From the IMG/VR virus record IMGVR_UViG_3300037458_000126, positions 1-24,406 of that record: 24,406 bases of DNA; one strand, given 5' to 3'. Every line of letters begins with the position of its first letter. The first letter of the stretch is position 1. The notes beneath the pieces are model-generated. The model saw only the letters and a program-made list of their open reading frames with translations. It was not told the DNA's origin and did no database searches. Positions 1-19,550 of this stretch are shown piece after piece. Source of the stretch: a virus. Lineage: Duplodnaviria; Caudoviricetes. A program made the position numbers and the translations under genes.

Positions 1-315
1 AAGTCTGTGTTTAACGAAACCCACGTAGCCTTCATCTGCTACGCGCAGCATGCTGGATATGTCCAGCCAGTGATCCACGCGAGGTGGTCGGCTACGGCCT
101 GCGTGTATGCTCGTAGTCGGGCTGTAAGTGTCCTTGTTGCCGAACCACACTTCGTGCTCGGAGTCGAACACGTACAACGGCCAGTGGTGCCCGTAGGAGA
201 ACACAGCGTACCGGTAGCCTTCGCCTGCCGGGCGTTTCTCCGCGAACAAGTGACTGCCGTTGAACTCTTCGTGCTTGCGCACGTAATGCGCCGCCTGCCG
301 GTTGGCTATCCGCAT
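1..315 (-). CDS. Conserved-type phage hypothetical protein (partial, runs off the window)
   Basis: Not in the ORF track. ATG at 315-313 directly follows the TAA of the VWA gene, with a GGAGG Shine-Dalgarno upstream. Open to position 1: MRIANRQAAHYVRKHEEFNGSHLFAEK...YAVFSYGHHWPLYVFD...WFGNKDTYSPTTSIH. Confidence 0.7.
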   Translation of the reverse strand, partial: MRIANRQAAHYVRKHEEFNGSHLFAEKRPAGEGYRYAVFSYGHHWPLYVFDSEHEVWFGNKDTYSPTTSIHAGRSRPPRVDHWLDISSMLRVADEGYVGFVKHRL

Positions 316-1473
316 TTACACCTCCTTCTCGAACTTGACGTTCATCCCGTAGGGGGCTTTAACGTCGGTGGTCATGAGCCAGACAACGGGCCAGCGGGGC
401 TCGGTGCCGAACGGGGTGTATCCATCGGTGAGGAAGATCACCGTCTCGGGGTCGATGCCCTGCTGGTTAACCCAGTCGTAGGCAACAGGGAGGTCGGTGC
501 CGCCGCCACCGCGCGGGGTGCAGGTAATGGGGAAGTCCTCCGGCTCATACGTATCTGCGTGGTTCACCTCGGTATCGACGTACAGGACATGCACGCGCTC
601 GGGGTTGCACGCCTCCATGATACGGTTGATGTGCCCGTTGAACTCGTTCAGCTCGGCCTGTCCGATACTGCCGGACGTATCGACGACGATGACAACCTCC
701 CCCATCTTCGGCACGTAGTCCTGACCCGGCAGATACACGCCCTGCCCGATGAGTCGTCTGTTCGGCCGCTGCCAGCTGTAGTCATCCTTGATCCTGCCCG
801 CCATGAAGCGTTCCAGTATCTCGTGCCACGGGGTGTGTATCGCCACGATCTCGTCCACGATACGCTTGATGCCAGCGGGGAGCTTACCCATCGCCTCGGC
901 CACCTTGGCGGCTTGCAACATCTCCACCTTCGCCTTGACCTCGATCTCGTGGATTTGGGACGGGTCGAGCGGGTTGCCGTCATCATCCACCGGGTCGCCG
1001 ATATCCTCACCGATGCCTCCGAGTTCTTGTCCGGGTCCATGGCCCTCGCCTTCTGGGGGTTCCTGGTACAACTCTTCCGCCGAGTGGTGCCGCGCACCGT
1101 CGAACGTCACGCAGCCAGGGATAAACTCGCCGATCCCCGCGTCGATCAGGGTGTCGTTGATAACTTCGTCACACGCGTAGTTCCACGCAGGGTGGTCACG
1201 GTGCTTACGGCGTAACGCATGCGACAGCATGAAGTGCATGGCCTCGTGTGCCAGGAGGAACTGGAACTGCTTGACGGTAAGCGTATCCGCGAAGGCAGGG
1301 TTGATACGCATCTGTCCCGTGGCGGACATGGACGCAGTGGGAGTGCTGCTATCCCAGATTATCGGGCGTTGCGCGACTGCCGCGCCGAAGAAGGGGTGGT
1401 CCAGTACCAGGAGGGACTTGGCCTTGGTGAACTTGCGCTGCACCTCGGCGGAGGGTTGGATAGATGTAGTCAT
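316..1473 (-). CDS. HExxH metallopeptidase-like N-terminal domain plus C-terminal VWA domain (DUF2201-like)
   Basis: LLAHEAMH zinc motif, WNYACDEVIN, acidic linker, SWQRPNRR, MIDAS DTSGS...GGGT...TDG; AGGAG SD. Confidence 0.9.
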   Translation of the reverse strand: MTTSIQPSAEVQRKFTKAKSLLVLDHPFFGAAVAQRPIIWDSSTPTASMSATGQMRINPAFADTLTVKQFQFLLAHEAMHFMLSHALRRKHRDHPAWNYACDEVINDTLIDAGIGEFIPGCVTFDGARHHSAEELYQEPPEGEGHGPGQELGGIGEDIGDPVDDDGNPLDPSQIHEIEVKAKVEMLQAAKVAEAMGKLPAGIKRIVDEIVAIHTPWHEILERFMAGRIKDDYSWQRPNRRLIGQGVYLPGQDYVPKMGEVVIVVDTSGSIGQAELNEFNGHINRIMEACNPERVHVLYVDTEVNHADTYEPEDFPITCTPRGGGGTDLPVAYDWVNQQGIDPETVIFLTDGYTPFGTEPRWPVVWLMTTDVKAPYGMNVKFEKEV

Positions 1474-1495
1474 GATTACTCCTTAACTCGTTGTA

Positions 1496-2515
1496 TTACA
1501 CCAACCCCGCCATGTCGTTCATGAGGGTGGCAATCTGCTGCTGGGCACTGGCGCGTACGGTACTGCTGCGTTTGAGTGCTTCGATACCGGTCTCGCTGGC
1601 GTACTGCCCTACCAGGGTGCGCAGGGCGTTGATCTTGTCCGCCACCACGGGGTCGTCGGAGAGGTTCACCACAGCCATGCGATCCGCCACTTCCAGCATG
1701 TTCATGATGGTGCTGTCGTGGAACCGTTGTCCCTTGTCGCCCTTGTACTCGGCGAGACGCTTGGTCGCGGCCTGCATAGGCTCCAGTAGAGACTGAATAA
1801 CGTGCGTTGCTGCGTTACGCTCAGCCTCGCGGATGTCCCGTTCAAGAGACGCACGATCTTCATCGGAGATACTGACACGGAAATCTCCCGCAGTGGGCAC
1901 GGGGCGAAATCGCACGTCGATACCGTAGTACCCCCCGATACTCTTGGGGTAGTCATCGGGCTTGGCCAGCGGGCCGAGGTGCGCCATGTCGTTAGCCACT
2001 TCGGTGGTCCACACGGTTTCCAGCTGTGCCACGGCAGCGTTACACGCGTCGATCCGCTTACGCATCTCGGAGGTGTACTCCAGGTACAGGTCAGCGCGCA
2101 GCAAGTCCACGCCGTTCTCCCACGGTAGCGTGTGCTGCTTGTGGTACGTGTAGGCTTCGGTGAACTTGGCGTTCACCTTGCGCACCAGGGAGTCGCTGCG
2201 CTTGAACAGGTGCTTGTTGAACCTGCCCGCGTTGATGCCGGTCTGTTGAGCCACGATGGACGTGGCTTGCTCGTCGTAAGCGTAGGGGGAGAACATCCGG
2301 CGGGTGAGCTTAACCAGCATAGCCTTGTCAGCCAGGGTCTTGATCGTGGGCGCGGCGTGCGGTTGGTACGCTGGCTGATGAGTCGAGAGTTCGCGCTCCT
2401 CCTCCATGACTGCCACATCGGCCTGCGGTTGGTACACGGGTTCCGGGGTTGCGATAGCCTGCGCCATCGCTTGTTTCAGGAAGTCGGGCAGGTTGCCCAT
2501 GTTGAGGTTAGGCAT
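1496..2515 (-). CDS. DUF3150-like alpha-helical phage protein associated with the MoxR/VWA module
   Basis: 339 aa with AGGAG SD; motifs HTLPW, DDYP, FRPVPTAGDFRV; lies between the AAA and VWA genes. The family name is inferred. Confidence 0.6.
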   Translation of the reverse strand: MPNLNMGNLPDFLKQAMAQAIATPEPVYQPQADVAVMEEERELSTHQPAYQPHAAPTIKTLADKAMLVKLTRRMFSPYAYDEQATSIVAQQTGINAGRFNKHLFKRSDSLVRKVNAKFTEAYTYHKQHTLPWENGVDLLRADLYLEYTSEMRKRIDACNAAVAQLETVWTTEVANDMAHLGPLAKPDDYPKSIGGYYGIDVRFRPVPTAGDFRVSISDEDRASLERDIREAERNAATHVIQSLLEPMQAATKRLAEYKGDKGQRFHDSTIMNMLEVADRMAVVNLSDDPVVADKINALRTLVGQYASETGIEALKRSSTVRASAQQQIATLMNDMAGLV

Positions 2516-2517
2516 GG

Positions 2518-2664
2518 TTACTCCTTATCCAGTGCGTTGTCCCGGCTCCACTGCATCTTGGTGCGCCGGCTGTTGAAGAGTGGGTCAGAGGGCAGGAAGC
2601 GATTGCCAGTTTTCTTCGCCACCCACACGAACCCATAGTGAACGTCGATACGCTTGCACCACAT
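2518..2664 (-). CDS. 48-aa hypothetical protein
   Basis: Not in the track. GAGGAG SD, MWCKRIDVHYGFVWVAKKTGNRFLPSDPLFNSRRTKMQWSRDNALDKE*; fills the gap between its neighbours. Confidence 0.65.
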   Translation of the reverse strand: MWCKRIDVHYGFVWVAKKTGNRFLPSDPLFNSRRTKMQWSRDNALDKE

Positions 2665-2673
2665 AGCTACTCC

Positions 2674-3690
2674 TCAGTTAGAGTTCAAGAAAATGTCCTT
2701 GTTACGGACAGCGAAGTCGATGAACGCCTTCGTGCTGGTGACTTTCGGGCGCATGCGTACCACGTCTGCGATGTACAACATCATGAACTCGCGCGGCATG
2801 CGGTCCATGTACACCATCGCCCTGTCGAAGTTGTCCTCGGTGGTGCGGATGGACAGGGATGTGGTCACGGCGTACTTCACCGCCGGTTCCGGGGGTACTT
2901 CCGCCTGGGCGGGTTGCATGAGGATGTAATCGACGGATGGCATCTTGGCCATGAGGTCTTTGGCCGATACCCACTCAGCCGCTGGGCCTTCGCCCACGTA
3001 ACCCTCAGCCAGTGTGAGGTACAACGACGTATCCATGTGGAACGGCACCTCCGTCCATAGCTTCGTCCAGCTGCGCGGAGTCGGGTTGATACCACGGTTC
3101 GGGTCGAAGTCGTTGATGATGCTAGGGCGAAGGCGAGCGAATGCCACGGCGTGCGGGTCCACGCCCATTTCGAGAAGCTTGGCGCTGTGGTCGTCGATGG
3201 AGTAGTCCATGCCTACGGTGCATACACGGTTACTGTAGTGCGTGGGCAACGTCTTGCTGCCAGCCTTGTCCTTGGCGCGGTTACCTGTAGAGATGAAGAC
3301 CACGGACGGGTCGAACTTGAGCGATTCCACGCGCCGGTCGAGGATCATAGACGCGCAGGCGTTCACCATACTGGTCTGCCCTTGAGCCAAGTCATCCACG
3401 ACGATCATGCCGGGGCCAGTGCCTTCCGCGAAACGAGCCAGCTGGGCAGGGGGGCACCACTCGGTTTGGTTGTCGGGGTTCACCTTGGGTACGCCTGTGA
3501 TATCCACCGGGTCGTGGATGGATGCCAGGAAGATATAGACGCGCTCAGGGGGGATGCCCAGGTCTCTCGCGATCTCGTGGCACATGGAAGACTTACCCAT
3601 TCCGGGGGTGCTCTCGATGTGGAAGACTGCGCTGGGGTTGTTGCGCAGGGTTTGGGTAATGGCGGTTTTGAGTTGGCTGAAGGAAGCCAT
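2674..3690 (-). CDS. MoxR/AAA_5-type AAA+ ATPase
   Basis: Walker A-like STPGMGKS, DITGVP, Walker B-like IVVDD, sensor STGN, SNR arginine finger, TPRSW sensor 2. Start moved to ATG 3690 (MASFSQL) because AAGGAG lies just upstream. Confidence 0.9.
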   Translation of the reverse strand: MASFSQLKTAITQTLRNNPSAVFHIESTPGMGKSSMCHEIARDLGIPPERVYIFLASIHDPVDITGVPKVNPDNQTEWCPPAQLARFAEGTGPGMIVVDDLAQGQTSMVNACASMILDRRVESLKFDPSVVFISTGNRAKDKAGSKTLPTHYSNRVCTVGMDYSIDDHSAKLLEMGVDPHAVAFARLRPSIINDFDPNRGINPTPRSWTKLWTEVPFHMDTSLYLTLAEGYVGEGPAAEWVSAKDLMAKMPSVDYILMQPAQAEVPPEPAVKYAVTTSLSIRTTEDNFDRAMVYMDRMPREFMMLYIADVVRMRPKVTSTKAFIDFAVRNKDIFLNSN

Positions 3691-3844
3691 GTGATTACTC
3701 CTTAACAAGTAGAGAGGACGGTTTCCACGGGTGACGGACAGTACCGAAAAACTCCGCGCCTGCTTACGCCCAGGCCATGCACCGCGTTGTTACGTTACAT
3801 CGTTGTTAGCGCGCTATGAGTCGTCGGCGCGCGGGCTCGTGTGC

Positions 3845-3967
3845 TCACATGTTAGCGCGGGTTGGGCGTAGCTTGACCAGATGCGAGCGGCCGAAGGATG
3901 CCACCACGTCGAAGTCAATTCCCAGGTAAGCCCAGGTAAGCGCCAGCTTAGTCGAGATGCAGAACAT
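3845..3967 (-). CDS. 40-aa hypothetical peptide
   Basis: GGAGGT SD then ATG: MFCISTKLALTWAYLGIDFDVVASFGRSHLVKLRPTRANM*. Confidence 0.5.
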   Translation of the reverse strand: MFCISTKLALTWAYLGIDFDVVASFGRSHLVKLRPTRANM

Positions 3968-4049
3968 GGTACACCTCCACGGGGCAGTAGTAACCATCCT
4001 CGTATTCCACGAGGGGCTCGAAGTCTGGTGTTAACGGGTAAGTTAGCAT
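3948..4049 (-). CDS. 33-aa acidic/aromatic hypothetical peptide
   Basis: GAGGA SD overlapping the end of the previous ORF: MLTYPLTPDFEPLVEYEDGYYCPVEVYHVLHLD*. Confidence 0.5.
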   Translation of the reverse strand: MLTYPLTPDFEPLVEYEDGYYCPVEVYHVLHLD

Positions 4050-4053
4050 GGTG

Positions 4054-4182
4054 TCAGTCCTCGGAGCAATTGGCGAACGTGTAACCCATGAAGCGTGCGA
4101 TGGTCATGGCGGCGCGTGCCTCGTTGCCGAAGTAAAACAGGATGCGCTGGCCTTTGTAGTTAACGTGTTGCAGGATAAGCAT
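4054..4182 (-). CDS. 42-aa hypothetical peptide
   Basis: GAGGAGTAACCCC-ATG at 4182 gives MLILQHVNYKGQRILFYFGNEARAAMTIARFMGYTFANCSED*. The track's longer 4323 start runs through the iteron region. Confidence 0.6.
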   Translation of the reverse strand: MLILQHVNYKGQRILFYFGNEARAAMTIARFMGYTFANCSED

Positions 4183-4250
4183 GGGGTTACTCCTCAACAT
4201 GTTGGGAAATAGGGTTAAGTAGACCACGGGTGTGGTCGGAGGAAAGTTAC

Positions 4251-4590
4251 GGAACAACGAGGGTTGCGCGTCGTTGCGCGGGTTGTTCCATTGAACGGAA
4301 CAGACTTTGTTCCGTTGTTCCAATCGTTGTTCCGTAGAAACGAGTGTCTATAACTATTTATATTATATTATATAGAATGATTGGAACAACGGAACAGACT
4401 TTTAAGAGAGAGAGTACCCCCACGTGTGGCCTTTTTTCTATCCAACTGGAACAAGTGTCGAACCGAAACAAAAAAGGTCAGATTTGGCGACTCTCTCTTT
4501 TTTGGCTTGTTCCGTAGAACGGTAACACTATGATTCTAAAGGATTGTTCAGTGAACCGTTAAAGTGGTTTATGCGTTCCGCTGTTCCGTA
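4251..4590. repeat. Iteron-like GGAAC/GTTCC cluster around an AT-rich core; candidate replication origin
   Basis: 12 GGAAC/GTTCC copies in both orientations; 18-bp perfect inverted repeat at 4308-4325/4379-4396; AT-rich core at ~4349-4378. Confidence 0.6.
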
Positions 4591-4655
4591 GTCCACTGAG
4601 CAAAACTCTATTTTCTTGCGCTCGCCACGTGGAAAGACGCGGCGAAACTTTCTTC

Positions 4656-4684
4656 TTGACAAGAAAACAGAGTTTTGCTAACCT
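4656..4684 (+). promoter_or_regulatory. Sigma70-like promoter, antisense to the early arm
   Basis: TTGACA (4656-4661), 17-bp spacer ending in TGC (extended -10), TAACCT (4679-4684). Confidence 0.5.
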
Positions 4685-4703
4685 GCGAAGGCAGGTTAGC
4701 AAA
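4674..4703. other. Perfect 13-bp hairpin just downstream of the 172-aa gene
   Basis: TTTGCTAACCTGC-GAAG-GCAGGTTAGCAAA; no adjacent U-tract on either strand. Confidence 0.7.
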
Positions 4704-4726
4704 CAAGCGAAAACGCCTAGTTTCGG

Positions 4727-5245
4727 TCAGTCCACAGTTACGGAGACCTTATCCCCGGAAGCGATGGCTTCCAGCAATGGGACATACTCGGCGTGCAAGA
4801 CCTCGCGATCTTGTTTCTTCTGGGCGTTCTTGATCTGCTTGAGCAGGTCGATGACTTTCGCCTGAATGTCGAGGTTGGAGACAATGGATTCCTTGCTTGC
4901 CTTGTACCACTCAACAGTAGCCCACTCCGTGGTGGTGAGCGCGCCGGGCTTTTCGCCGGTCATTTCCTCCACGTCGAAGAAATAGATACCTTCGCGGTTC
5001 TTCTTGCTGTTGGGGTCGGTCTTGCTGTATGCGAGGTTGCCGAACTTCTCGAAGTACGCAACCAGGGATTGCCGGCGCATACCAGCCGACAACGCGTGGA
5101 ACAGCGTATCCGCATTGGTACTGTTGCGATCACGAACGGACAGTTCGATGGCGAACACCGCGCACGCCTGGATGTCCTTATTGAGCAACACCTGACGCGC
5201 TTTGATGCGACCGACGATTTCGTTGAATTGGCTTTGACTGAGCAT
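4727..5245 (-). CDS. Phage early hypothetical protein (172 aa)
   Basis: AGGAG SD and coding-like composition; segment NADTLFHALSAGMRRQSLVAYFEKFG resembles small early proteins of proteobacterial phages. Confidence 0.75.
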   Translation of the reverse strand: MLSQSQFNEIVGRIKARQVLLNKDIQACAVFAIELSVRDRNSTNADTLFHALSAGMRRQSLVAYFEKFGNLAYSKTDPNSKKNREGIYFFDVEEMTGEKPGALTTTEWATVEWYKASKESIVSNLDIQAKVIDLLKQIKNAQKKQDREVLHAEYVPLLEAIASGDKVSVTVD

Positions 5246-5281
5246 GATTTACTCCTAAACGAGTTAGTTGATAGGCTTGAT

Positions 5282-5540
5282 TAATGTCGGCTGATCAGGT
5301 GCGCCCCGTTGGGTTAAAACTTTGTTACGACGCAGGGGGTGGGTTTTTGGGCGCGGTAAGACCAATCGCGCCGTTTCGCGCCGCCAGTCTTGTGAAGCGG
5401 TTGGTTTTTAGTGACCATCGACGCGCGCAGCGCGCCTCGTTTGGTGATCCTTCGTGCTGTGATACTCTCGATTACGCTGGAAAATGTTTTCATGGCTACT
5501 CCTCAGCTAGTAAGGGAGCGCACCTGATCAACCGACATTA
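5282..5540. repeat. Long inverted repeat (23-26 bp) flanking a small ORF
   Basis: TAATGTCGGCTGATCAGGTGCGC (5282-5304) vs GCGCACCTGATCAACCGACATTA (5518-5540), 22/23 complementary. Confidence 0.9.
5314..5493 (-). CDS. 59-aa Arg/Lys-rich basic protein
   Basis: Not in the track. GAGGAGTAGCC-ATG; MKTFSSVIESITARRITKRGALRASMVTKNQPLHKTGGAKRRDWSYRAQKPTPCVVTKF*. Confidence 0.7.
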   Translation of the reverse strand: MKTFSSVIESITARRITKRGALRASMVTKNQPLHKTGGAKRRDWSYRAQKPTPCVVTKF

Positions 5541-5544
5541 GAAA

Positions 5545-5975
5545 GCCTGCGGCATTGCGCCGCAGGATGCACAAAACCCCGCTATGGGCCATTGATGCGA
5601 TCTCTGGCTTTGCAGGGTCTATGCTCAATCCTTGCCTTTGGTGGCATAACTTTCCACCTGCCGCACGCCCTTAACTCAAGGCTTTCGCGCTTAGCCGTGG
5701 CGGGATTGCCACTTATCTACGCTTACGCGGCTCCCCACTTGTGATGGGGTTCCCAAAGTGGACATATCCACTTCGAGCACTTAGACCCTTTCAGCGAAGT
5801 GTGCTACTCGATATGCGATATTCCGCTTACCTTTTGCTACCGAATCCTTACGCTTGCTTCATGGAGGATTAGTTCTCCCCGCCACAAGCGCGTTCAGTCA
5901 CCGGGTCTTAATGTGTCGGCCTTGCTCACCGTGCACCTTTGCAGGTCGGGAGCCCCCTTCGGCCGAGGGTCGGGT
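5545..5975 (-). ncRNA. Candidate large structured ncRNA or 5' leader (family not recognised)
   Basis: No convincing ORF; dense series of hairpins, several with GNRA loops on the minus strand, plus an 8-bp long-range complement (5614-5621/5782-5789). Boundaries are approximate. Confidence 0.5.
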
Positions 5976-6112
5976 ACTACATACATGGCGACTTGTAAAC
6001 ATCCCGACACGCGCCGAGCCTCACACCCACCCCCCACAGGACACCCACCCCCACCAGGCCCCACCCCATGCTTAGGTGTTGCGTTCATAGCGCCCCCTAT
6101 CTCAACAATACC

Positions 6113-6127
6113 TGACTAAATTAGTCA
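6113..6127. promoter_or_regulatory. Palindrome, possible protein-binding site
   Basis: TGACTAA-A-TTAGTCA, a perfect 7-bp inverted repeat in the divergent intergenic region. Confidence 0.4.
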
Positions 6128-6192
6128 ACTATTCCCCTCCGCCCCGCCCGCTTACCAGCTCGCTTCGCCAAACTCCCCCACACCCAACCCCC

Positions 6193-6221
6193 TTGACCCT
6201 TCCCCACTCACCATGTATACA
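6193..6221 (+). promoter_or_regulatory. Sigma70-like promoter for the terminase genes
   Basis: TTGACC-17 bp-TATACA, 7 nt before ATG 6229; overlaps a copy of the operator-like palindrome (6214-6229). Confidence 0.5.
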
Positions 6222-6228
6222 TGTAAGC

Positions 6229-6591
6229 ATGGCTGATACTCTAACGACCCCCGAAGACGCTCTGGCTAAACGGACCCAGCTGCCGCCAGCCCTGGTGGAA
6301 GAAATCCAGGAGAACCCGGAAGCGATCCGCCCCCTGGCGCGTGGTATGGCTGCGATCAACCTGTTTAACCTGTTCGCCAAGGTGTCCCACCCCAACGCCC
6401 CGACCAAGGACAAGCTGGAGTTCCAGAGGGTCGTGAACAAGATTGGTCGATTGGAGCCTGAAACTGTGGCACCGAGTGGTAGCGGAGTAACGATCACGAT
6501 CAGCATCCCTGCTTTGGACGCACAGCCGGAGCGCAACGTGGTGATTGACCAGATTGCGGAACCCACCTTCGAGTTGAGCGCTGTCGAATGA
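6229..6591 (+). CDS. terS: Probable terminase small subunit
   Basis: Directly upstream of the large terminase and overlapping it (ATGA); helical core followed by a SGVTITISIP beta-strand tail. Start moved from TTG 6193 to ATG 6229. Confidence 0.6.
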   Translation: MADTLTTPEDALAKRTQLPPALVEEIQENPEAIRPLARGMAAINLFNLFAKVSHPNAPTKDKLEFQRVVNKIGRLEPETVAPSGSGVTITISIPALDAQPERNVVIDQIAEPTFELSAVE

Positions 6592-7982
6592 GCGACGTAA
6601 AGCTCGCATACACCCCGATCCACACAACCACAACTAGGTTCCACCGCAGTAACGCCTTTGCCCGGTGGTTGATGGGTCCGCTTGGCTGCGGGAAATCGTA
6701 TGCCATCATGTGGGAAATTCTCATCAGGGCTGCTCAGCAGCCTGTAGGACCGACTGGAAAGCGCCGGTCGAGGGTGATCTTTACCCGGAACACACGGCAG
6801 ATGCTGCTGGACTCCGTGCTGCCGATCATGAAAGAGGTGCTGCACGAGGGTGTGATCGGGACGTGGAGGTCCAGTGAGAGTGTTTATCAGGTGCGGGTGA
6901 ACGACATCGAGTTGGATATCCTGTTGAGACCCCTGGAGGACGACAGCGACATTCGGCGGGTGCTGGGTATCAACGCGACGTTCTGCGTGATTGACGAGTG
7001 GCGAGAGATACCGGTTAGCACGATCATCCAGATCGCTGGTCGCGCTGGACGTTTTCCGGCGAAAGAGGAGGAAGGCTGCGCGTTTGCGGGTATCTTCGGT
7101 GCGTCAAACCCCCCGGTGGAAGGGTCGGACTGGCACACGACCCTGGAAGATGCCCGCCCGGAGGGGTGGGAGTTGTTCAAGTTCCCGTCTGCGCTATCCC
7201 CGGAGGCGACGTGGAAGCAGTTCCTGCGGGATGGGTACTATGAGCAGTTGATGGAAGGCGGCACACCGGACTACGTGCGCGTTATGATCGAAGGGAACTA
7301 CGGGCGTAGCCTGGATGGGCGCGCGGTGTACGAGACTACGTTCAAGCACGACTTCCACGTCGGGAAAGACCCCCTGGTGCCGATAGACCGGATGGGGCAC
7401 ACCGTGTTCGTCGGGATGGACTTTGGGCGGACGCCCGCTGCGGTGTTCGGGCAGAAGGACGCGCGAGGCCGGGTGTTAGTTCTGGACAGCCTGTACGCGG
7501 AGAACGTGGGCTTGGATAAGTTCCTGACAACTCAGGTGAAGCCGTTGCTCGCTAACAAGTACGCGAAAAACAAAGTGCTGGTGATCGGCGACCCGGCGGG
7601 TTGGGCGAAGACGCAGATATCCGAGGAGTCCGTGGCTGATGTGTTCCGCAGGCACGGCATGACCGCCCGTCGGGCACCGACGAACGACCCGGAGAAGCGC
7701 ATCGCCGCTGTAGAGCGGTTGCTGATGATGCAGAGCGATGGCGGGCCGATGCTGGTGTTCGACCACAGGCTCACTCACTTGCTGCGCGGCCTGAACGGCG
7801 GGTACAAGTACAAGCGTAAGCAGAACGGGACATACGAGGACGCCCCGCTGAAGGACGAGTTCAGCCACGACAACGACGCGCTCCAGTACCTCTGCCTTGG
7901 CGTCGAGATGGATGGTGGAGCCTACACTATGTATAACCAGCGACGCGAAGTGCAGCGAGTCAGTGCTGCCGGCTGGACATGA
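6588..7982 (+). CDS. terL: Terminase large subunit
   Basis: Walker A GPLGCGKS, Walker B CVIDE, ASNPP coupling motif, RNase H-like nuclease GMDFG...GDPAG...HDNDALQY. Confidence 0.95.
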   Translation: MSDVKLAYTPIHTTTTRFHRSNAFARWLMGPLGCGKSYAIMWEILIRAAQQPVGPTGKRRSRVIFTRNTRQMLLDSVLPIMKEVLHEGVIGTWRSSESVYQVRVNDIELDILLRPLEDDSDIRRVLGINATFCVIDEWREIPVSTIIQIAGRAGRFPAKEEEGCAFAGIFGASNPPVEGSDWHTTLEDARPEGWELFKFPSALSPEATWKQFLRDGYYEQLMEGGTPDYVRVMIEGNYGRSLDGRAVYETTFKHDFHVGKDPLVPIDRMGHTVFVGMDFGRTPAAVFGQKDARGRVLVLDSLYAENVGLDKFLTTQVKPLLANKYAKNKVLVIGDPAGWAKTQISEESVADVFRRHGMTARRAPTNDPEKRIAAVERLLMMQSDGGPMLVFDHRLTHLLRGLNGGYKYKRKQNGTYEDAPLKDEFSHDNDALQYLCLGVEMDGGAYTMYNQRREVQRVSAAGWT

Positions 7983-7984
7983 CT

Positions 7985-8015
7985 TGTTGACACGTAAGCA
8001 CATCCGAGCTATATA
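7985..8015 (+). promoter_or_regulatory. Portal promoter with overlapping operator-like palindrome
   Basis: TGTTGACACGTAAGCA (7985-8000); TTGACA-17 bp-TATATA (8010-8015). Confidence 0.65.
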
Positions 8016-8042
8016 GACGTAACGTCACCTCAAGCACCCGCC

Positions 8043-10136
8043 ATGCTCGCTCTAGTTCCAGTTGCCAGTGCGTCAGACCTGGAAGCCGCAGCCAAGCGCG
8101 AGGCGGAAGTCCAGAACAATCAGCCCGTGATCCAGGAGCTGGCCGCGCATGTGCGCCGCCGCTGGGAAGTCGCTAAAGATGCGAAGGACGACCTGGAGGA
8201 GCGGATGCTGAAGAGTATCCGCCAGCGGCGTGGTGAGTACGAGCCGGACAAACTCCGGGAAATCCAGCAGCAGGGCGGCAGTGAGATTTACGTGATGCTC
8301 ACGTCGGTCAAGTGCCGCGCGGCGACGAGCTGGCTGCGGGACTCCCTGCTGGGTACCGGCGCGGATAAACCCTGGTCGCTGAACGCTACCCCCGTGCCCG
8401 AGCTGCCCCCCGAGGTGACTGCCGGGTTGCAGAACGAGATGGCCCAGCTGTTGTTCCAACAGTACCAGATGGGCATGGCACCCCCCGACCCTGCTGCGTT
8501 GCGCCAGCAGGCCATGCAGATGAAGGACGTGGCGCTGCGTAAGCTCAAGGAAGAAGCGGAGAAACGCGTGGACCGTGCCGAGACTGGCATGGAAGACCAG
8601 ATGATCCAGGGTGGGTTCCGCAGCGCGCTGAGCGAGTTCATCGACGACATCGCCACGTTCCCGTTCGGCGTCCTGAAAGGGCCGGTGATCCGCAAGCGCA
8701 AGCAGCTCGAATGGCAGGGTGAAGCCCTGGTGCCGGTGGACCGGCTGGTCGAGGAGTGGGAGCGGGTCGATCCGTTTAACTTCTACTGGGCACCGTGGGC
8801 GAGTAACGTTGACGACGGGTTCGTGATCGAGCGGCACAAGATGACGCGGGATGACCTGGAGGCGCTGATCGGCGTGGAAGGGTACAGCGAGGCTGCGATC
8901 CGTTCGGTGCTGGTGGACTGGCAGGTGGGTAACCTGAACGAGTGGTTGTCGATAGACAGCGCCAAGGCCGACGCCGAAGGTAAAAGCGTTACCGACGTGA
9001 CGCACACGCCCGACCTCGTGGATGCGTTGCAGCTGTGGGACTCCGTGCAGGGGAAACTGCTGATCGAGTGGGGCCTGCCGGAGACCGAGATCGAGGATGC
9101 GATGCTGTCGTACCCGTGCGAAGTCTGGCTGATCGGTAATAAAGTGATCAAGGCGGTGTTGAACTACGACCCGCTGGGCCGGAAACCGTACTACGCCACC
9201 AGTTACGAGCGCGTGCCGGGTAGTCTGGCGGGTAACGGCGTGGCGGACCTGTGCCGCGACAGCCAGAACATGGTGAACGCCGCCGCGCGGGCACTGGCTA
9301 ACAACATGGGTATCAGCTCCGGCCCGCAGGTGGGCGTGAACGTCAGCCGGTTGCCCGCCGGGGAGAACATCACCCAGATGTACCCGTGGAAAATCTGGCA
9401 GTTCCAGGCGTCGGACTACAACGACGGCTCCGCACCCATAACGTTCTTCCAGCCGAACAGTAACGCGCAGGAGCTGATGGCGGTGTTCGAGCGATTCTCG
9501 GCCCGTGCGGACGAGGATACGGGCATCCCCCGGTACATGACCGGCGAGCACACCCCCGGCGTGGGTCGTACGTCGTCCGGCCTGTCGATGTTGATCAGTA
9601 ACGCCGGCAAGGGCATCAAGCAGGTCATCAGTAACATCGACAACGACGTGTTGGCCCCCCTGGTCGAGCGGCTGTACCAGCACAACATGCGTTACCACCC
9701 CGACCCCGAGCAGATCGGTGACCTGAAGGTGGTGGCGAAGGGCGCGATGTCCCTGGTCGTCAAGGAAGCCGAGGCGGTGCGCAGGAACGAGTTCCTGCAA
9801 ATGGTGCTGAACAGCCCGGTGGTGCAGCAGATCGTCGGCATGCCGGGTACTGCGGAGCTGCTTCGTGACGCCGCGAAGAGCCTGAACGGTAACGTCGATA
9901 AGATCGTGCCGGCGCGTGAGGATATCGAGGCGATGGTGGCGCAGCAGGCGCAGATGCAGCAGATGATGATGCAGGCGCAGATGCAGCCGGAGACCGAGAA
10001 CGTGGAGTTCCAGCGCGATGACAGCGGCGCGGTGACGGGCGCGACCCGTAAGAAACCCCGGCAATTATTGCCGGATGGCTCGCAGGTTGGCGGGCGCGAG
10101 AGTAATTTCATCAGCAGCAGGCCGAATAACCGATGA
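8043..10136 (+). CDS. Portal protein (P22-like podoviral type)
   Basis: 697 aa directly after terL; ERVDPFNFY, GNGVADL, ADEDTGIP, GRTSSGLSML and a Gln/Met-rich C-terminal helical tail. Confidence 0.9.
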   Translation: MLALVPVASASDLEAAAKREAEVQNNQPVIQELAAHVRRRWEVAKDAKDDLEERMLKSIRQRRGEYEPDKLREIQQQGGSEIYVMLTSVKCRAATSWLRDSLLGTGADKPWSLNATPVPELPPEVTAGLQNEMAQLLFQQYQMGMAPPDPAALRQQAMQMKDVALRKLKEEAEKRVDRAETGMEDQMIQGGFRSALSEFIDDIATFPFGVLKGPVIRKRKQLEWQGEALVPVDRLVEEWERVDPFNFYWAPWASNVDDGFVIERHKMTRDDLEALIGVEGYSEAAIRSVLVDWQVGNLNEWLSIDSAKADAEGKSVTDVTHTPDLVDALQLWDSVQGKLLIEWGLPETEIEDAMLSYPCEVWLIGNKVIKAVLNYDPLGRKPYYATSYERVPGSLAGNGVADLCRDSQNMVNAAARALANNMGISSGPQVGVNVSRLPAGENITQMYPWKIWQFQASDYNDGSAPITFFQPNSNAQELMAVFERFSARADEDTGIPRYMTGEHTPGVGRTSSGLSMLISNAGKGIKQVISNIDNDVLAPLVERLYQHNMRYHPDPEQIGDLKVVAKGAMSLVVKEAEAVRRNEFLQMVLNSPVVQQIVGMPGTAELLRDAAKSLNGNVDKIVPAREDIEAMVAQQAQMQQMMMQAQMQPETENVEFQRDDSGAVTGATRKKPRQLLPDGSQVGGRESNFISSRPNNR

Positions 10137-10525
10137 TCACGACCTGTATTCCGACTTCCGGCAAGACGTACTTCCTGGAGCGTGCGCTGGGCGACCAGTT
10201 CATGCTGGCGCTGTACACGAGTCAGGCGGACTTAGGCCCGGATACTACGGCTTACACGTCAGCAAACGAAGTGCGCGGGAAAGGGTACAAACCCGGCGGG
10301 CTGGCGCTCAAGAACCCCCGCGTCTGGGTAGATCGCGGCGCGGCATGCCTGACGTTCGACTCCGTGGCGATCCAGGTGGCGACGCTCACCGCGCGCGGGT
10401 TCCTGGTGTACAACAAGTCGCGGGATAACCGAGCGATCTTCGTAGGGGACTGGGGCGGCGAGTACACCTCCACCGAAGGCCCGTTCACGATCCCCATCGC
10501 CGCTGACCTTATCGTATTCGACTGA
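10133..10525 (+). CDS. Phage virion-associated beta-rich protein
   Basis: Pattern FMLALYTSQADLGPDTTAYTSANEVRGKGYKPGG...ARGFLVYN, common in phage structural regions; ATGA coupling to the portal gene. Confidence 0.65.
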   Translation: MITTCIPTSGKTYFLERALGDQFMLALYTSQADLGPDTTAYTSANEVRGKGYKPGGLALKNPRVWVDRGAACLTFDSVAIQVATLTARGFLVYNKSRDNRAIFVGDWGGEYTSTEGPFTIPIAADLIVFD

Positions 10526-10526
10526 C

Positions 10527-10700
10527 ATGAAAGACGATCTCCAGGGCTGGTACAACGTCTCCTCGCTCACGGGCCAGTGCGCGTGGTGCAAGAACAAGCT
10601 CGTCGAGAGTCACGTCATGGCGGCGTGTGAGTACGGCGATCCGCGTTTCCCGCATGCGACGAAGTGCGCTCACTATGAGCCGGAGGACTTGGACGAATGA
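10527..10700 (+). CDS. 57-aa Cys-rich putative metal-binding protein
   Basis: Not in the track. MKDDLQGWYNVSSLTGQCAWCKNKLVESHVMAACEYGDPRFPHATKCAHYEPEDLDE*; its stop overlaps the endolysin ATG. Confidence 0.65.
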   Translation: MKDDLQGWYNVSSLTGQCAWCKNKLVESHVMAACEYGDPRFPHATKCAHYEPEDLDE

Positions 10701-11125
10701 TTACCTCCGCCCAGGCTCTCAAACGCTACGGTGACCCTCGGGCCAACGAGGCGAAGCACATGGTTTTGTTGGACGTGCCGAGTGACTTGCTGATCGGCAC
10801 TGTCCCGCGCCGCATCTACTGCAACCGCGATCTGGTGAAGCCGCTGCTTCAAGCGTTTATGAATCTGCGCGATCGCGGGCTTAGTGACGAACTGAAGACC
10901 TGGGATGGGTGTTTCAACATCCGCAACAAGCGGACGGGTAGCACTCTCAGCCTGCATTCCTGGGGGCTAGGCGTGGATGCGAACGCAGCGTGGAATCGCC
11001 TTGGCAAACCACCTACCCTGTCGCCGGAGTTCGTGAAGTGCTGGACGGACGCCGGGTTCGACTGGGGTGGTCACTGGAAGTACCCAGACGGCATGCACTT
11101 CCAACTTGCGGAGTTTCCGAAATGA
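10697..11125 (+). CDS. Endolysin, peptidase M15 family (L-Ala-D-Glu peptidase-like)
   Basis: SLHSWGLGVD and FDWGGHW...DGMHFQL zinc-binding motifs; GGAGG SD. Confidence 0.9.
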   Translation: MITSAQALKRYGDPRANEAKHMVLLDVPSDLLIGTVPRRIYCNRDLVKPLLQAFMNLRDRGLSDELKTWDGCFNIRNKRTGSTLSLHSWGLGVDANAAWNRLGKPPTLSPEFVKCWTDAGFDWGGHWKYPDGMHFQLAEFPK

Positions 11126-11304
11126 AGAAGCCCGAACTGCAAGCTGAGATCGACCGCCTCACGCTGAGGCTAAACGTGTTGCAAGAACGCATCGTTGCCC
11201 TTGAGTCGCGCATGTGGGTTATTCCATCGCTTCCATATCAACCATTCGCCCCATTTGAACCATATCGTCCAGTTTGTGAAGGTGAAATCCCATGCGGTTC
11301 CTGA
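11122..11304 (+). CDS. 60-aa coiled-coil hypothetical protein
   Basis: ATGA overlap with the endolysin stop; MKKPELQAEIDRLTLRLNVLQERIVALESR. The track's 10990 start is unlikely. Confidence 0.65.
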   Translation: MKKPELQAEIDRLTLRLNVLQERIVALESRMWVIPSLPYQPFAPFEPYRPVCEGEIPCGS

Positions 11305-11846
11305 TCCTACTTCTCCTCCCCGCCCTGGCCTGGGCTACCCAGCCCGCGAACCTGCCGCACAGTGGGAACACGACCAACCACATCCAAGCATCCGCCAAGG
11401 CATCGGCTCTGAGCCAGTCTACGGCCGTCTCTGGTGCGGCGGCGATCTCTGGCGGCAACACCCAGTCCGTGAACGTGGGTGGCGGCAAGCAGGCCAACGC
11501 GCAGACGGTGAACGTCTCCGGCGACTCCTACAAGGAAGTCAAGCAGGCTCCCAACGTCTACGCGCCGACCATCCCGCCCACTGCTCCCTGCATGGGCTCC
11601 TCCTCTGGCGGCGGCAGTGGCTCCGGCTTCGGCCTGTCCTTCGGCACCTCCTGGACCGACGACGAGTGCAACACCCGCGAGACTGCCCGCCTGTTCAGCG
11701 GCATGGGGCTGGGTAGCGATGCCCTGGCCGTGCTGTGTTCCAGCAAGTTCGCCGCCGCTGCGCCGTCCTGTGCCGCGTTCCGCACGGTCGAGTGCCACAC
11801 CGATGAGATCGTCGCCAAGCGGCTCGGCGTTGGAGTGTGCAAGTGA
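11292..11846 (+). CDS. Exported Gly/Ser-rich, Cys-containing protein
   Basis: Signal peptide MRFLILLLLPALAWA; TAPCMGSSSGG...GLSFGTSWTDDECNTRETAR; six Cys. Confidence 0.75.
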   Translation: MRFLILLLLPALAWATQPANLPHSGNTTNHIQASAKASALSQSTAVSGAAAISGGNTQSVNVGGGKQANAQTVNVSGDSYKEVKQAPNVYAPTIPPTAPCMGSSSGGGSGSGFGLSFGTSWTDDECNTRETARLFSGMGLGSDALAVLCSSKFAAAAPSCAAFRTVECHTDEIVAKRLGVGVCK

Positions 11847-12094
11847 CCCTTTGGCGCCCCTACATCTCCAACTGCCTGATCTGGGCGCTGTGGATGCAGC
11901 TTACCCGAGGCGGCTGGGTGTGCTGGCGCAAATCGCACTATGGCTGGTGGCCGCATGCCATCTGGTCCATCGACCGCAAGACTTGGTGGGAGTACCTGCC
12001 GGTGGGGTTCTCTGGCCGGCTGAAGTGGTGGCAGGTGCTCTGGATCGTGATGTTCCGTGGCTCACCGCGAATGGTTGAAAGGAGCGAACTGTGA
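11843..12094 (+). CDS. Trp-rich small, probably membrane-associated protein
   Basis: GTGA overlap start; SNCLIWALW...HYGWWPHAIW...WWQVLWIVMFRG. Confidence 0.65.
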   Translation: MTLWRPYISNCLIWALWMQLTRGGWVCWRKSHYGWWPHAIWSIDRKTWWEYLPVGFSGRLKWWQVLWIVMFRGSPRMVERSEL

Positions 12095-12291
12095 AATTCA
12101 CCCATCCAGACGGCCAGTATGACAGCTTTAACGGGATGAACGTGTGGGTGCTACCGGACGACGATGAGCGCATGAAGGGCATCGCTGACGGAGACATTGG
12201 CAGCGATGGTGTGCGCTTCTACTGTCGAGAGAGCACTTGGCCAAGACTGCGTGATCTGCTGGTCGCCGAGATCGACGAGGCGCTGAAATGA
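12091..12291 (+). CDS. Hypothetical protein (66 aa)
   Basis: AGGAG SD; 4-bp overlaps with both neighbours. Confidence 0.65.
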   Translation: MKFTHPDGQYDSFNGMNVWVLPDDDERMKGIADGDIGSDGVRFYCRESTWPRLRDLLVAEIDEALK

Positions 12292-12536
12292 GCCTGAACG
12301 TGGTGGATTTCCCGAACCAATCGCTGGCAGATGTGCCGGCAAAACTGCGCGACCTCGCCGACTTGGTTGCGGAAAAGCACTTCGGCGAAACCGAGACGGT
12401 GGTTGTGGTGCTCAAGACGGATACCCACCTTGAGGTGTTCGGGCTTGGCGCGGAGGCTGACGGCACGGTGGCGCACTACCTGCTCCAGTGCGCTGCTCGG
12501 AAGATTGAGGATGCTCTTTTGGAGGCAGTGGTATGA
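12288..12536 (+). CDS. Hypothetical protein (82 aa)
   Basis: ATGA coupling; MSLNVVDFP...LRDLADLV. Confidence 0.7.
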   Translation: MSLNVVDFPNQSLADVPAKLRDLADLVAEKHFGETETVVVVLKTDTHLEVFGLGAEADGTVAHYLLQCAARKIEDALLEAVV

Positions 12537-12859
12537 GCAACGATTTCCGCCCAAGCTTTCCACGGAACGACGGCGCTGAGCGCTTCCTTCGCACCATGCT
12601 TGCGGCGGATAAACGCGCGGATATAACTGAAAAATTGCGCTGTGCATGCACTGGTTATACAGCCGCACATGGCTTGCAAACGCACGACGATCTATTGATG
12701 GAGGGGGCGCGTGAAATAGATCAACTCCGCGCCGCCCTGGCCCGCAAGGAAGCCGCTATGTCCGCCCTGCGCGAATGGATGCGCTACACCGACTGGCTGC
12801 GCTTCGCAGCGGACCACGAAGAGCACGCGGCGCAGTTTCCGGCATGGGAGAAGCCATGA
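12533..12859 (+). CDS. Hypothetical protein (108 aa)
   Basis: GGAGG SD and ATGA coupling; DITEKLR...LLMEGAREIDQLRAAL, a common small phage protein pattern. Confidence 0.65.
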   Translation: MSNDFRPSFPRNDGAERFLRTMLAADKRADITEKLRCACTGYTAAHGLQTHDDLLMEGAREIDQLRAALARKEAAMSALREWMRYTDWLRFAADHEEHAAQFPAWEKP

Positions 12860-13092
12860 CCCGCCCCCACTACCTCATCCGCCTGGGCGACGCTCTGTCG
12901 CAACTGCTCAACGTCGCCCTGCTGAATGGCGACGCCAACGAATCCATCTCCGGCCGCGCCCACCGCGAGGGCTGGAAGACTGCCGAGCGCATCATCAACT
13001 GGCTGCTGCGCCCGCTCGGCCCGGATCACTGCCGCACGGCGTATCTGGAGGATGTGGCGCGGGCATGGGAACTCGTGAAGGAGTCCGCATGA
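12856..13092 (+). CDS. Conserved-type small phage protein
   Basis: ATGA start at 12856; LSQLLNVALLNGDANESISGRA...IINWLL...DHC motif. Confidence 0.7.
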   Translation: MTRPHYLIRLGDALSQLLNVALLNGDANESISGRAHREGWKTAERIINWLLRPLGPDHCRTAYLEDVARAWELVKESA

Positions 13093-13313
13093 ACATCCGC
13101 ACACGCCGCTGGCTCAAGGGCATGAGCAAGTCTCTCACCGTCCACGCCGGCACGCTTGTCCTGGTGGTGGGCTACCTCCAGGGCCAGACCGAATGGATCA
13201 CGCGCCACTTCGGCGAGGCCGCGACCGGCGACGTGCTGATGGGGCTGGGGGTGCTGATGATCCTGCTCCGGGCCAAGACCACGCAATCGCTTGAGAGCAA
13301 GGGGGCGAAATGA
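13089..13313 (+). CDS. Putative holin (two hydrophobic segments)
   Basis: KSLTVHAGTLVLVVGYL and VLMGLGVLMILLRAKTT, basic termini, located in the lysis region. Confidence 0.6.
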   Translation: MNIRTRRWLKGMSKSLTVHAGTLVLVVGYLQGQTEWITRHFGEAATGDVLMGLGVLMILLRAKTTQSLESKGAK

Positions 13314-13672
13314 GTTACTGCCGATTCAGCAGCGACGACTGTCAGTGTGACGTGTATTGCTACGAGGATGTATCTGGTGGCTGGACTACGCACGTCGCCA
13401 GCAAGAGGGTGGTGTTTGACGTTCCATTACCTCCGCCTGTCGAGTATGTGCCCCACGCAGAAGCGTTTTTCGCGCGACTGGAAGCGGTGCGCGACATCGT
13501 AAAGTTATCTAAGCGCGTGCCAATCGGTCTGCCGTATGACGGCGAATCGTTCAACGATCCGACTCCAGGCGAAGCGGCGGACAGGCTGGAGATGCTGCGC
13601 GATGCCGGGTACAGGGTGCCGCAAAGCGCCATCGACATGCTGCGCGAAGAAGCGGCGGAAGTAACTGAATGA
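13310..13672 (+). CDS. Conserved-type phage hypothetical protein (120 aa)
   Basis: MSYCRFSSDDCQCDVYCYEDVSGG...LEMLRDAGYRVP; coupled to both neighbours. Confidence 0.75.
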   Translation: MSYCRFSSDDCQCDVYCYEDVSGGWTTHVASKRVVFDVPLPPPVEYVPHAEAFFARLEAVRDIVKLSKRVPIGLPYDGESFNDPTPGEAADRLEMLRDAGYRVPQSAIDMLREEAAEVTE

Positions 13673-14172
13673 TCCCCGCCTTCGCCCTCCGCTACCTCCC
13701 CCACGCCCTCGGCACCATCGCCGTGCTGGGTGCGATCTGGTGGGTCCATGATTCTGTATGGGACAAAGGCTATGCGCGTTGCGAAGCGGACTACGCCGCC
13801 CAATCTGCTGCTGCGGCGGCTCATGCGCGGCAAGACTATCTGGATGCCATTGCCAAGGGTGATGCGATTTCTGCGCGCCTTGCAGCATCCCAGGCCGAAA
13901 ACCAGAAACTGAGGAACCGACATGCGGACTCTGCTCGTTCTATTCTGGGCGTTTGCCCTGACAGCCTGCGCGTCCTCCACGACGCCGCCGCCGCAGGTAC
14001 AGAACTGCCCCCAGCCTCCAGCACACTTGCTGGTCAGACCGGACTCGTTGCGGCCAGTGCGATTGCCGTCGCCGTCGGAGAAAACTACGCCGATTGCCGT
14101 GAGTACGCAGAACGACTCAATGCGCTGATTGACTGGCACGAATCCCTGTCCAAGAAGAAAGAACAACAATGA
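13669..14172 (+). CDS. Rz: Inner-membrane spanin (Rz-like)
   Basis: N-terminal TM helix, Ala-rich coiled coil, LRVLHDAAA, C-terminal ENYADCRE...LNALIDW. Confidence 0.75.
   Translation: MIPAFALRYLPHALGTIAVLGAIWWVHDSVWDKGYARCEADYAAQSAAAAAHARQDYLDAIAKGDAISARLAASQAENQKLRNRHADSARSILGVCPDSLRVLHDAAAAGTELPPASSTLAGQTGLVAASAIAVAVGENYADCREYAERLNALIDWHESLSKKKEQQ
13922..14128 (+). CDS. Rz1: Outer-membrane lipoprotein spanin (Rz1-like), embedded in Rz in the +1 frame
   Basis: GAGGA SD; signal MRTLLVLFWAFALTAC with lipobox LTAC; Pro-rich mature part with CPQPPAHLL. Confidence 0.85.
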   Translation: MRTLLVLFWAFALTACASSTTPPPQVQNCPQPPAHLLVRPDSLRPVRLPSPSEKTTPIAVSTQNDSMR

Positions 14173-14507
14173 CCGACGAACTCAACGCCAAGCTCGACCT
14201 GCTCCACGCGAGGATGAGCACCATGGAACTGACGCTGGCCAAAGTGTCCGACGCCCTGGTGAGCATCGCCCGCATCGAGGAGCGCATGCAGGCTAACAGC
14301 GAGGCCCTGTCCCGCGCCTTTGAGGCCAACCACAAGCTGGCCGAGGCTCTATCCAAACACGAGCACCTTGCCGACGAGCGCATGCGCAAACTGGAGGAAG
14401 TCGCCCCCGTCCACAAGCTGGTGAGCGGCTGGGTGCTCGCCTGGATCGCCGGAGCCGTGGGGCTGCTGGGCGGGGTGGTGGCCAGCAAAGTGCTGGGCGG
14501 TAACTGA
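14169..14507 (+). CDS. Coiled-coil protein with C-terminal TM helix (holin/antiholin-like lysis accessory)
   Basis: LVSIARIEERM coiled coil followed by WVLAWIAGAVGLLGGVVA. Confidence 0.6.
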   Translation: MTDELNAKLDLLHARMSTMELTLAKVSDALVSIARIEERMQANSEALSRAFEANHKLAEALSKHEHLADERMRKLEEVAPVHKLVSGWVLAWIAGAVGLLGGVVASKVLGGN

Positions 14508-14541
14508 TTCACAACCTTTTTGTTTTTATGAGGACTTAACC

Positions 14542-15132
14542 ATGCTGACCGACACCGAATACAACGCCATGCTGGACGCCCGCCTGCCGAGTGGCGCCGG
14601 CAACCTGTACCTCTCCGCACATACCGACTACAGCGCCACCGGAGCCAACATGGTGGCAGGCAGCCGGACCAGCGCCAACTTTTCTGCCGCCGCGAGCCGG
14701 CAGAAGGCACTCTCCGCTGCGGTGGACCTCACCATCGGCGCGGGCAACACGGTCAAATGGATCGGCGTGTGGGACAGCACGCAGACCACCTTCAAGGGGA
14801 TGTACCCCAACGGCGGCTCGGACTTCACGTTCCAGCTTGATACGACCGCCAACGAGCGCATCTACGCCGAGGGGCACGGTCTGGTCAACAACGACAAGGT
14901 GGTGTTTCACAACGGCACCGCGCCCACCGGCCTGACCGCCGGCACGACCTACTGGGTTGTGGGCGTGACTGCTGGCGATCCCGACTACTTCCAGGTGTCC
15001 CTGACTCAAGGCGGCGCGGCGATCAACATCACCGGCCAGCATGCCGCGTCCTGCGTGTGCTCCAAGATCATCGAGGAGACCTACGCGGGCGCCGGTACGC
15101 ACCGGGTCAACACCATGACCATCAGCCTCTGA
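14542..15132 (+). CDS. Virion structural or tail-associated protein
   Basis: GAGGA SD; LYLSAHTD, TVKWIGVWDS, and an inserted HGLVNNDKVVF...PTGLTAGTTYWVV...FQVSLTQGGAAINIT module typical of phage tail proteins. Confidence 0.7.
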   Translation: MLTDTEYNAMLDARLPSGAGNLYLSAHTDYSATGANMVAGSRTSANFSAAASRQKALSAAVDLTIGAGNTVKWIGVWDSTQTTFKGMYPNGGSDFTFQLDTTANERIYAEGHGLVNNDKVVFHNGTAPTGLTAGTTYWVVGVTAGDPDYFQVSLTQGGAAINITGQHAASCVCSKIIEETYAGAGTHRVNTMTISL

Positions 15133-15150
15133 CCATGCGCGAGGGTAGCC

Positions 15151-18245: not shown

Positions 18246-18256
18246 CGCGATTAATA

Positions 18257-18287: not shown

Positions 18288-18291
18288 CAGA

Positions 18292-19548: not shown

Positions 19549-19550
19549 CC

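Follow-up and report, generated by a model that had tools for sequence, protein, structure and literature searches.

An uncatalogued, apparently expressed, probable leader RNA with a covarying 3′ module at the head of a phage early arm

Early regions of phages tend to be read for the small takeover proteins that they encode, and whatever non-coding DNA lies ahead of the first gene is mostly written off as room for promoters. In the tailed phage considered here, which is uncultured and comes from a wetland, this slot contains an RNA recovered in environmental transcriptomes, with a covarying motif present in no catalogue. The window, that is, the whole stretch of 24,406 nt that was analysed (IMG/VR record IMGVR_UViG_3300037458_000126), covers part of the phage genome. 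The original prediction, made from the letters of the DNA, had placed an undescribed structured RNA at positions 5545–5975 and suggested that it could be a large phage RNA or a put-like antiterminator that may work with the basic peptide encoded next door.

A folded minus-strand RNA between two gene arms

The plus strand of the window carries a gene in the terS position (6229–6591, without a PHROG match of its own), which precedes the terminase large subunit gene terL (6588–7982, phrog_2) and overlaps its start; the same arm also holds a portal-like gene, a scaffold gene and the major capsid gene. The minus strand forms a leftward early arm with phrog_1448 (4727–5245), the first conserved early gene and of unknown function, an ATPase gene and a phrog_1314 gene. 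The leader RNA occupies the gap between the two arms, divergent from the terS-position gene, and the minus-strand ORFs that overlap it span only 21–64 codons, none covering the whole RNA. Homologues of phrog_1448 are found in the early regions of cultured phiKMV-like and tf-like phages. The protein had no Pfam family, no named atlas family and no significant solved relative (best E 0.38), and these searches yielded no clue as to whether it could be a partner of the leader RNA.

A T7-type RNA polymerase was absent from all five longer related records (88–100% complete), with positive controls recovered in 2 of 2 cases, so host polymerase apparently has to traverse the early arm. Immediately upstream of the leader RNA lies a TTKACA...GCCA box (5977–5999, minus strand), associated with a promoter by its position only, which was also recognised by eye in the related loci L010, L011, L026, L060, L072 and L094; a sigma-70 scan found no site at 5977–5999, and the spacing of the box is not that of sigma-70. 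Expression of the leader RNA from a lysogen was considered and dropped, given that a tyrosine integrase was found in 0 of the same five records (control, 14 of 14), though one of them is classed as a provirus.

Other elements were noticed around the gap. A 27-nt, operator-like palindrome lies at 6107–6133 beside the terS-position gene and is common, whole or in part, to L014/L015, L016/L042, L018, L019 and L020. By eye, G/C tracts round a short core at 6019–6066 recur immediately before the leader in the majority of relatives and are possibly a genome end or terminase cut site. Directly after phrog_1448, a perfect 13-bp terminator-like hairpin (4703–4674, minus strand) is overlapped by a 20-bp inverted repeat (4599–4618 with 4660–4679), a possible second processing or attenuation site. 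The adjacent lower-GC gap at 4240–4600 folds more strongly than any other local stretch of the window (z −8.1). It contains a 21-bp inverted repeat and a 13-nt repeat that occurs at least five times, in both orientations, and it resembles an origin of replication or an array of operators.

All ten hairpins listed by the original prediction are present where it had put them. When folded as minus-strand RNA, the stretch 5545–5975 was more stable than 100 of 100 dinucleotide shuffles (z −5.48), and the plus strand reached a z of −1.53, with 8 of 100 shuffles as good. The part seen in RNA libraries (5607–5968) gave a z of −3.29. Minus-strand windows of 150 nt were modest (z −1.8, −2.7 and −2.2, the best ranking 12th of 162), and the number of perfect hairpins of at least 5 bp was not unusual (5 versus 2.8 in shuffles, a number matched by 15% of 1000 shuffles). 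The folding signal is thus spread out.

Taking together the fold, the RNA contigs and a terminator-like hairpin, the likely full extent of the leader RNA is 5546–5968 on the minus strand, about 420 nt, and its 3′ end may fall anywhere from about 5607 to 5530. Its predicted fold begins with domain 1 (5916–5968), a nested hairpin capped by a GCAA tetraloop at 5946–5935 (p 0.82–0.99), and continues with domain 2 (5778–5913), a multiloop closed by pairing of 5913–5903 with 5788–5778 (p 0.96–0.99). Two local hairpins, 5777–5752 and 5749–5733, then fill 5733–5777 (p 0.98), and domain 3 (5660–5731) is predicted as a branched stem with two inner hairpins (p 0.9–1.0). Since no whole-length homologue was found, most of these helices are predictions. 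Positions 5921–5909 of domain 1 also pair with 5540–5530, in the 5′ arm of a downstream inverted repeat, at p 0.9 when the 3′ arm of that repeat is absent from the model, which may represent another fold in competition with the duplex, or a chance complement.

Two further features had been noted in this stretch. The minus strand has four GNRA loops on 2-bp stems and the plus strand none, a count of four being reached by 3.7% of 1000 shuffles. The GCAA loop at 5946–5935 belongs to the predicted fold; the other three of the four found no support there, and the one at 5615–5608 clashes with the conserved 3′ module described below. As for the proposed pseudoknot, the 8-nt complement between 5789–5782 and 5621–5614 does exist on the minus strand, but at least two such pairs occur in 27% of shuffles, which is chance level, and both strands are better paired elsewhere in the full-length RNA. 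The 5′ strand, taken up by domain 2, has a closer nested partner at 5908–5903 (p 0.99), and the 3′ strand belongs to the outer stem of the module. Given that the pairing formed, nested, only in the centroid of a truncated RNA, it could be at most a folding intermediate, and we no longer regard it as a pseudoknot candidate.

No catalogued RNA accounts for the leader. Rfam 15 at gathering threshold gave no match in the leader RNA and two weak matches elsewhere in the window, nothing significant was found with Rfam in sets of 9 and 16 related loci, and ARAGORN reported 0 tRNA or tmRNA genes, in agreement with the original prediction. The literature searched, apart from the alignment archives of PMC10690425, yielded no description of this RNA, and the module motif and six contig ids were absent from four of six readable supplements of that paper.

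A conserved 3′ module next to a hairpin and a long duplex

The two most informative features of the locus were missed by the original prediction: a conserved module at the 3′ end of the leader RNA and a 26-bp duplex beyond it. The module (5569–5624, minus strand) consists of an outer stem, an asymmetric internal loop of CAAA opposite CCAUA, a short inner stem and a variable cap. A 36-nt stretch of it is identical at 32 of 36 nt in L135 and 31 of 36 in L072 (86–89%); L135 sits in a Rhodocyclaceae MAG contig, the only hint of a host. L046 and L011, which were picked by eye, have the same internal loop on different stems. In total the module was found in 5 of 30 leaders from four lineages, as against 0.03 per set of 29 in shuffles, and a fixed regular expression run over 2.04 Mb gave six distinct matches, of which all but one lay in these leaders in the sense orientation.

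In the alignment of the module, 85.5% of cells are paired, and nine of 11 pairs change on both sides. These values were reached by 0–1 of 500 shuffles, and slid controls were 22–52% paired; such controls are flattering, the structure having been drawn from the same sequences, from only four lineages and with two instances chosen by eye. RNAalifold applied to L072 and L135 alone gave the same module fold unprompted, with five compensatory pairs along that leader, and the G-U pairs in the outer stem of the window's module fit the minus strand only. Covariation was seen in the 3′ module; the upstream domains of the window's RNA have no homologue for comparison. The module keeps its exact loop letters while its stems change, much as protein-docking sites do. 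We know of no described motif with a CAAA/CCAUA internal loop.

The module is restricted in its distribution. It is missing from 25 of 30 leaders, including 11 of 11 from cultured phages. A search with a covariance model added no member from 137 sources (858 kb); of five records, three gave one copy each and two gave none. A separate pattern scan returned 21 loci, 20 of which were dropped as chance, as they overlapped long ORFs and lacked the module flanks, and the remaining one was L072 again.

Directly after the module follows a terminator-like hairpin (5546–5566, minus strand) of 8 perfect bp with a weak U tail. Terminator-like sites are not enriched in this region (5 versus 3.5 in shuffles), and L011 has a like hairpin after its module without a clear U run. 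Beyond the hairpin lie the arms of a long inverted repeat, the 5′ arm at 5512–5540 and the 3′ arm at 5282–5310 (minus strand), which would form an uninterrupted RNA duplex of 26 bp ending 36 nt before the ATG of phrog_1448; by analogy with known early messages, this duplex is likely an RNase III site. Duplexes in a similar place were found in L011 (31 bp, 38 nt before the start codon), L010 (21 bp, 38 nt), L098 (23 bp, 35 nt) and L015 (16 bp, 33 nt), and a stem of at least 14 bp ending within about 90 nt of the start codon is present in 11 of 16 leaders, a count taken without a shuffle control. In the window, in L011 and in L072/L135, only a few bases separate the module from the hairpin or long stem that follows it.

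The 207-nt loop of the window's duplex encloses a 59-aa basic ORF (5314–5493, minus strand; 14 K+R, 2 D+E) with an upstream AGGAG. The original prediction had made this peptide a possible partner of the RNA. The peptide had no usable atlas match and does not align with the like-placed peptide of L011. In L011 the whole arrangement recurs, the module and hairpin being followed by a 31-bp duplex that encloses a basic ORF of 56 codons and ends 38 nt before the start codon. In other relatives the long stem has a small loop. The duplex is thus the conserved element and the peptide a passenger in its loop. In addition, L046, L072 and L135 carry the module with no basic ORF between it and the first gene, and the proposed partnership finds no support. 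A short basic ORF comes first, within a long stem or directly behind it, in L011 (2823–2990, minus strand), L173 and L168, with no detectable similarity in the one pair compared.

Traces in RNA libraries and leaders in related phages

A word search with window positions 5200–6300 listed 24 runs, of which 20 were metatranscriptomes, each with 0.23–0.29 of the words, and contig positions were examined in seven of those 20. Each of the seven held one near-exact contig of 264–361 nt, differing from the window by 0–1 letters, and all lay within 5607–5968: 5612–5968, 5628–5967 and 5659–5931 in the first three runs, and 5607–5967, 5623–5967, 5660–5967 and 5693–5956 in the other four. Five of the seven end at 5967/5968, with the opposite end ragged (5607–5693), and the DNA runs on past 5967/5968 in both the window and the identical locus L001. 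This common end hints only weakly at a true terminus, and the contigs as a whole point weakly to moderately to a discrete molecule no shorter than 362 nt; all five contigs come from wetland 2020 runs, perhaps of one campaign, and those of two sediment runs end at 5931 and 5956.

Strand, start site and level are not readable from assembled contigs, and the minus strand is taken from the folding; an Illumina adapter at the low-coordinate end of one contig fits a minus-strand RNA only if the library was stranded. The contigs stop at 5607–5693, inside or before the module, which may or may not form part of the accumulated RNA. The 3′-most 65 nt consist of two strong hairpins and may have been missed by random priming. 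Among the pieces listed, no RNA contig lay on the peptide ORF, the duplex, phrog_1448 or the terS-position gene, gaps that carry no weight. Over window positions 1–20,000, the other long near-exact pieces listed lay on late genes, except for a 119-nt piece near 12906, and contig depth cannot rank genes. The one DNA run examined had no coverage of the leader RNA and hence gave no control. A metatranscriptome contig at 18527–18725, at the start of the scaffold gene, has 11 other letters and two gaps and points to a related phage strain. With the RNA-library contigs, the negative Rfam search and the covarying module in hand, the original prediction of an undescribed structured minus-strand RNA heading the early arm stands: the folded non-coding leader is real, uncatalogued and apparently expressed, and it carries a new covarying motif.

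No whole-length homologue of the leader RNA was found in 50,697 phage records, in IMG/VR (exact 21-mer) or in related loci by blastn or nhmmer, and some of the protein-led scans for relatives yielded nothing. Homologues of phrog_1448 turned up in 28 records, some of them redundant; in most, the gene diverges from the terminase genes, with about 330–620 nt of gene-poor sequence between the terS-position gene and phrog_1448. Together with the window's own leader, 18 leaders of uncultured relatives and 11 of cultured phages of the phiKMV-like or tf-like kind made up a set of 30. With 12 shuffles each, 10 of the 19 uncultured leaders folded at a z of −2.5 or lower and nine of 19 no better than −1.8. 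L055, L056 and L058, whose terL is closer to that of the window (65–66% identity), have by eye almost no leader. The uneven folding, the diverged sequences and the near-missing leaders suggest that this slot holds several unrelated or highly diverged RNAs, and sometimes none.

The cultured phiKMV-like phages Cd1, LKA1 and Andromeda also have a gene-free run after the last annotated host promoter. An 8-mer and a 13-mer that the window's leader shares with that of Cd1 were put down to chance, as 97.5% and 10.5% of shuffles, respectively, do as well. L015, L016, L018, L020 and L023 form a separate alignable leader family before phrog_1448 on the minus strand, with 65–87% identity in blocks and a pseudoknot-like complement; its sequence is unrelated to the window RNA, and Rfam gave 0 matches in the four members scanned. 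L094, L098 and L108 make up another family.

How the leader RNA may act

Given the fold, the RNA-library contigs, the lack of a catalogued family and a loop motif kept by distant phages, the RNA is likely a new regulatory leader controlling read-through or cutting of the early message. The scheme that we tentatively prefer, at slightly below an even chance in its full form, is a cis-acting one in which the module docks a protein and the leader is afterwards released as a stable RNA. Host RNA polymerase would start near 5970–5980, and the transcript would fold into four domains, the module forming right before the terminator-like hairpin and the 26-bp duplex. There its ligand may be a Nus-type factor, the polymerase of the host or a protein of the phage, and such binding would set read-through or cutting. 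Termination at the hairpin, or an RNase III cut in the duplex, would then free a stable RNA of about 420–440 nt, and the early mRNAs (peptide, phrog_1448 and onward) would gain new 5′ ends.

Three described systems invite comparison. T7 early mRNA, as treated in passages of PMC6121014, carries RNase III sites in long stems. The arrangement here resembles the R1.1 type in that host polymerase would make the early transcript and long stems stand before the early genes: a long duplex lies upstream of the ribosome-binding site of an early gene in the window and similarly in L010, L011, L015 and L098, and with 26 bp the window's duplex is longer than the minimal substrate given in those passages. 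Unlike in T7, the stem follows a multi-domain leader of 400 nt and has an ORF in its loop, and 0 of five relatives has a T7-type polymerase. The put element of HK022, described in sections of PMC9378689, is about 70 nt long, with two stems in a V, binds the beta-prime zinc domain of RNA polymerase and suppresses termination; putL and putR are cis RNAs that lie downstream of an early promoter and upstream of hairpin signals in a phage relying on host polymerase. The leader RNA heads the early arm, where no sigma-70 consensus site was found, and differs in being at least 362 nt long, about six times longer, with four domains and one internal-loop hairpin as its conserved part. Size and form, compared by description and not by sequence, therefore set it apart from the put family, so that of the proposed put-like antiterminator the mode of action stays plausible and the family membership does not. 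Finally, the text of 10.1101/2023.10.13.562163, as far as consulted here, reports 5′UTR-derived ncRNA candidates from Pseudomonas phages (LUZ19, LUZ24, phiKZ and others) that accumulate by early termination or processing; these too are structured fragments of 5′ leaders, but the examples in that text measure about 90–210 nt. LUZ19 and LUZ24 have a phrog_1448 homologue as well. On these analogies the closest functional parallels of the leader RNA would be processed early leaders of the T7 type and 5′UTR-derived phage ncRNAs.

The cis-acting scheme is favoured by the fixed place of the module against the hairpin and duplex, which is the geometry expected of a cis element, together with the apparent need for host polymerase. 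Several results count against it: the U tail of the terminator is weak, a purely cis element needs no accumulation, no whole-length homologue exists in the records searched, the module is confined to a minority of leaders, and nearly half of the uncultured leaders fold weakly. The accumulation would fit an RNA acting in trans, as a stand-alone molecule first made on infection, a stable decoy or scaffold titrating a host RNA-binding or defence protein; its loop module would bind the target, and the hairpin and duplex would serve only to cut the RNA free. The contigs in all seven RNA runs agree with such a decoy, as do a leader far longer and more branched than attenuation requires, loop letters preserved as in protein-docking sites, and the phage ncRNAs from 5′UTRs reported in the text of 10.1101/2023.10.13.562163. 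We nevertheless consider it rather unlikely, as the module is always beside the downstream stem, one copy per record, with no repeats or free positions, the upstream domains are not conserved, and contigs give no expression level. A sponge for CsrA/RsmA would also be expected to look different: there are only two GGA motifs, the motif generally associated with these proteins, and neither lies in a terminal hairpin loop.

Less probable again is a functionless or purely protective by-product, in which the leader would be a spacer at the first-injected end, its hairpins a shield for the mRNA and the accumulated piece an RNase III leftover. Short T7 leader fragments are such leftovers after RNase III processing, structured RNA outlasts mRNA in environmental samples, and the leaders in this slot are divergent, often weakly folded and sometimes absent. 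Protection alone is insufficient to explain invariant loop letters and covarying stems in four lineages, which point to selection on a specific three-dimensional site. We give the lowest standing, as quite improbable, to a machine made of RNA alone, either an ornate homo-oligomer like ROOL and GOLLD or packaging RNA, or a new self-cleaving ribozyme making one of the ends. Its size, its phage origin and the neighbouring terminase (the packaging-RNA idea) speak for it, as do the abrupt stop of contigs at 5967/5968, the other contig ends close to the module, and words in the 5′ part that are complementary to themselves (5966–5959 and 5942–5937, read directly and without a chance control). ROOL and GOLLD are, according to passages of PMC12286853, large structured phage-encoded RNAs of unknown function; the leader RNA is shorter and lacks an Rfam match, a tRNA island, supported pseudoknots and whole-length conservation. 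No self-cleaving ribozyme was matched in Rfam, a hammerhead core motif is absent, and transcription runs with the early arm, away from the packaging genes.

Whether the RNA turned out to control host polymerase on its own or to act as a decoy, a new mechanism of either kind would be a useful finding. A bolder version of the decoy, which we also regard as unlikely, is that the first product of podophages without their own polymerase is a long-lived trans-acting RNA of 400 nt whose CAAA/CCAUA loop captures a host enzyme or defence factor. Such an RNA would parallel the early host-takeover proteins, and one genomic slot across the phage group would be occupied by structured leaders that can replace one another. 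Since phiKF77, SnaR1, Cd1 and Bf7 have the same slot and the same gene without the module, leader function is directly testable. Two of these, the Sphaerotilus phage SnaR1 (L168, 560–965) and the Pseudomonas phage phiKF77 (L172, 900–1660), have gene-free runs before their first genes which gave no Rfam match and which by eye have several motifs and hairpins in common.
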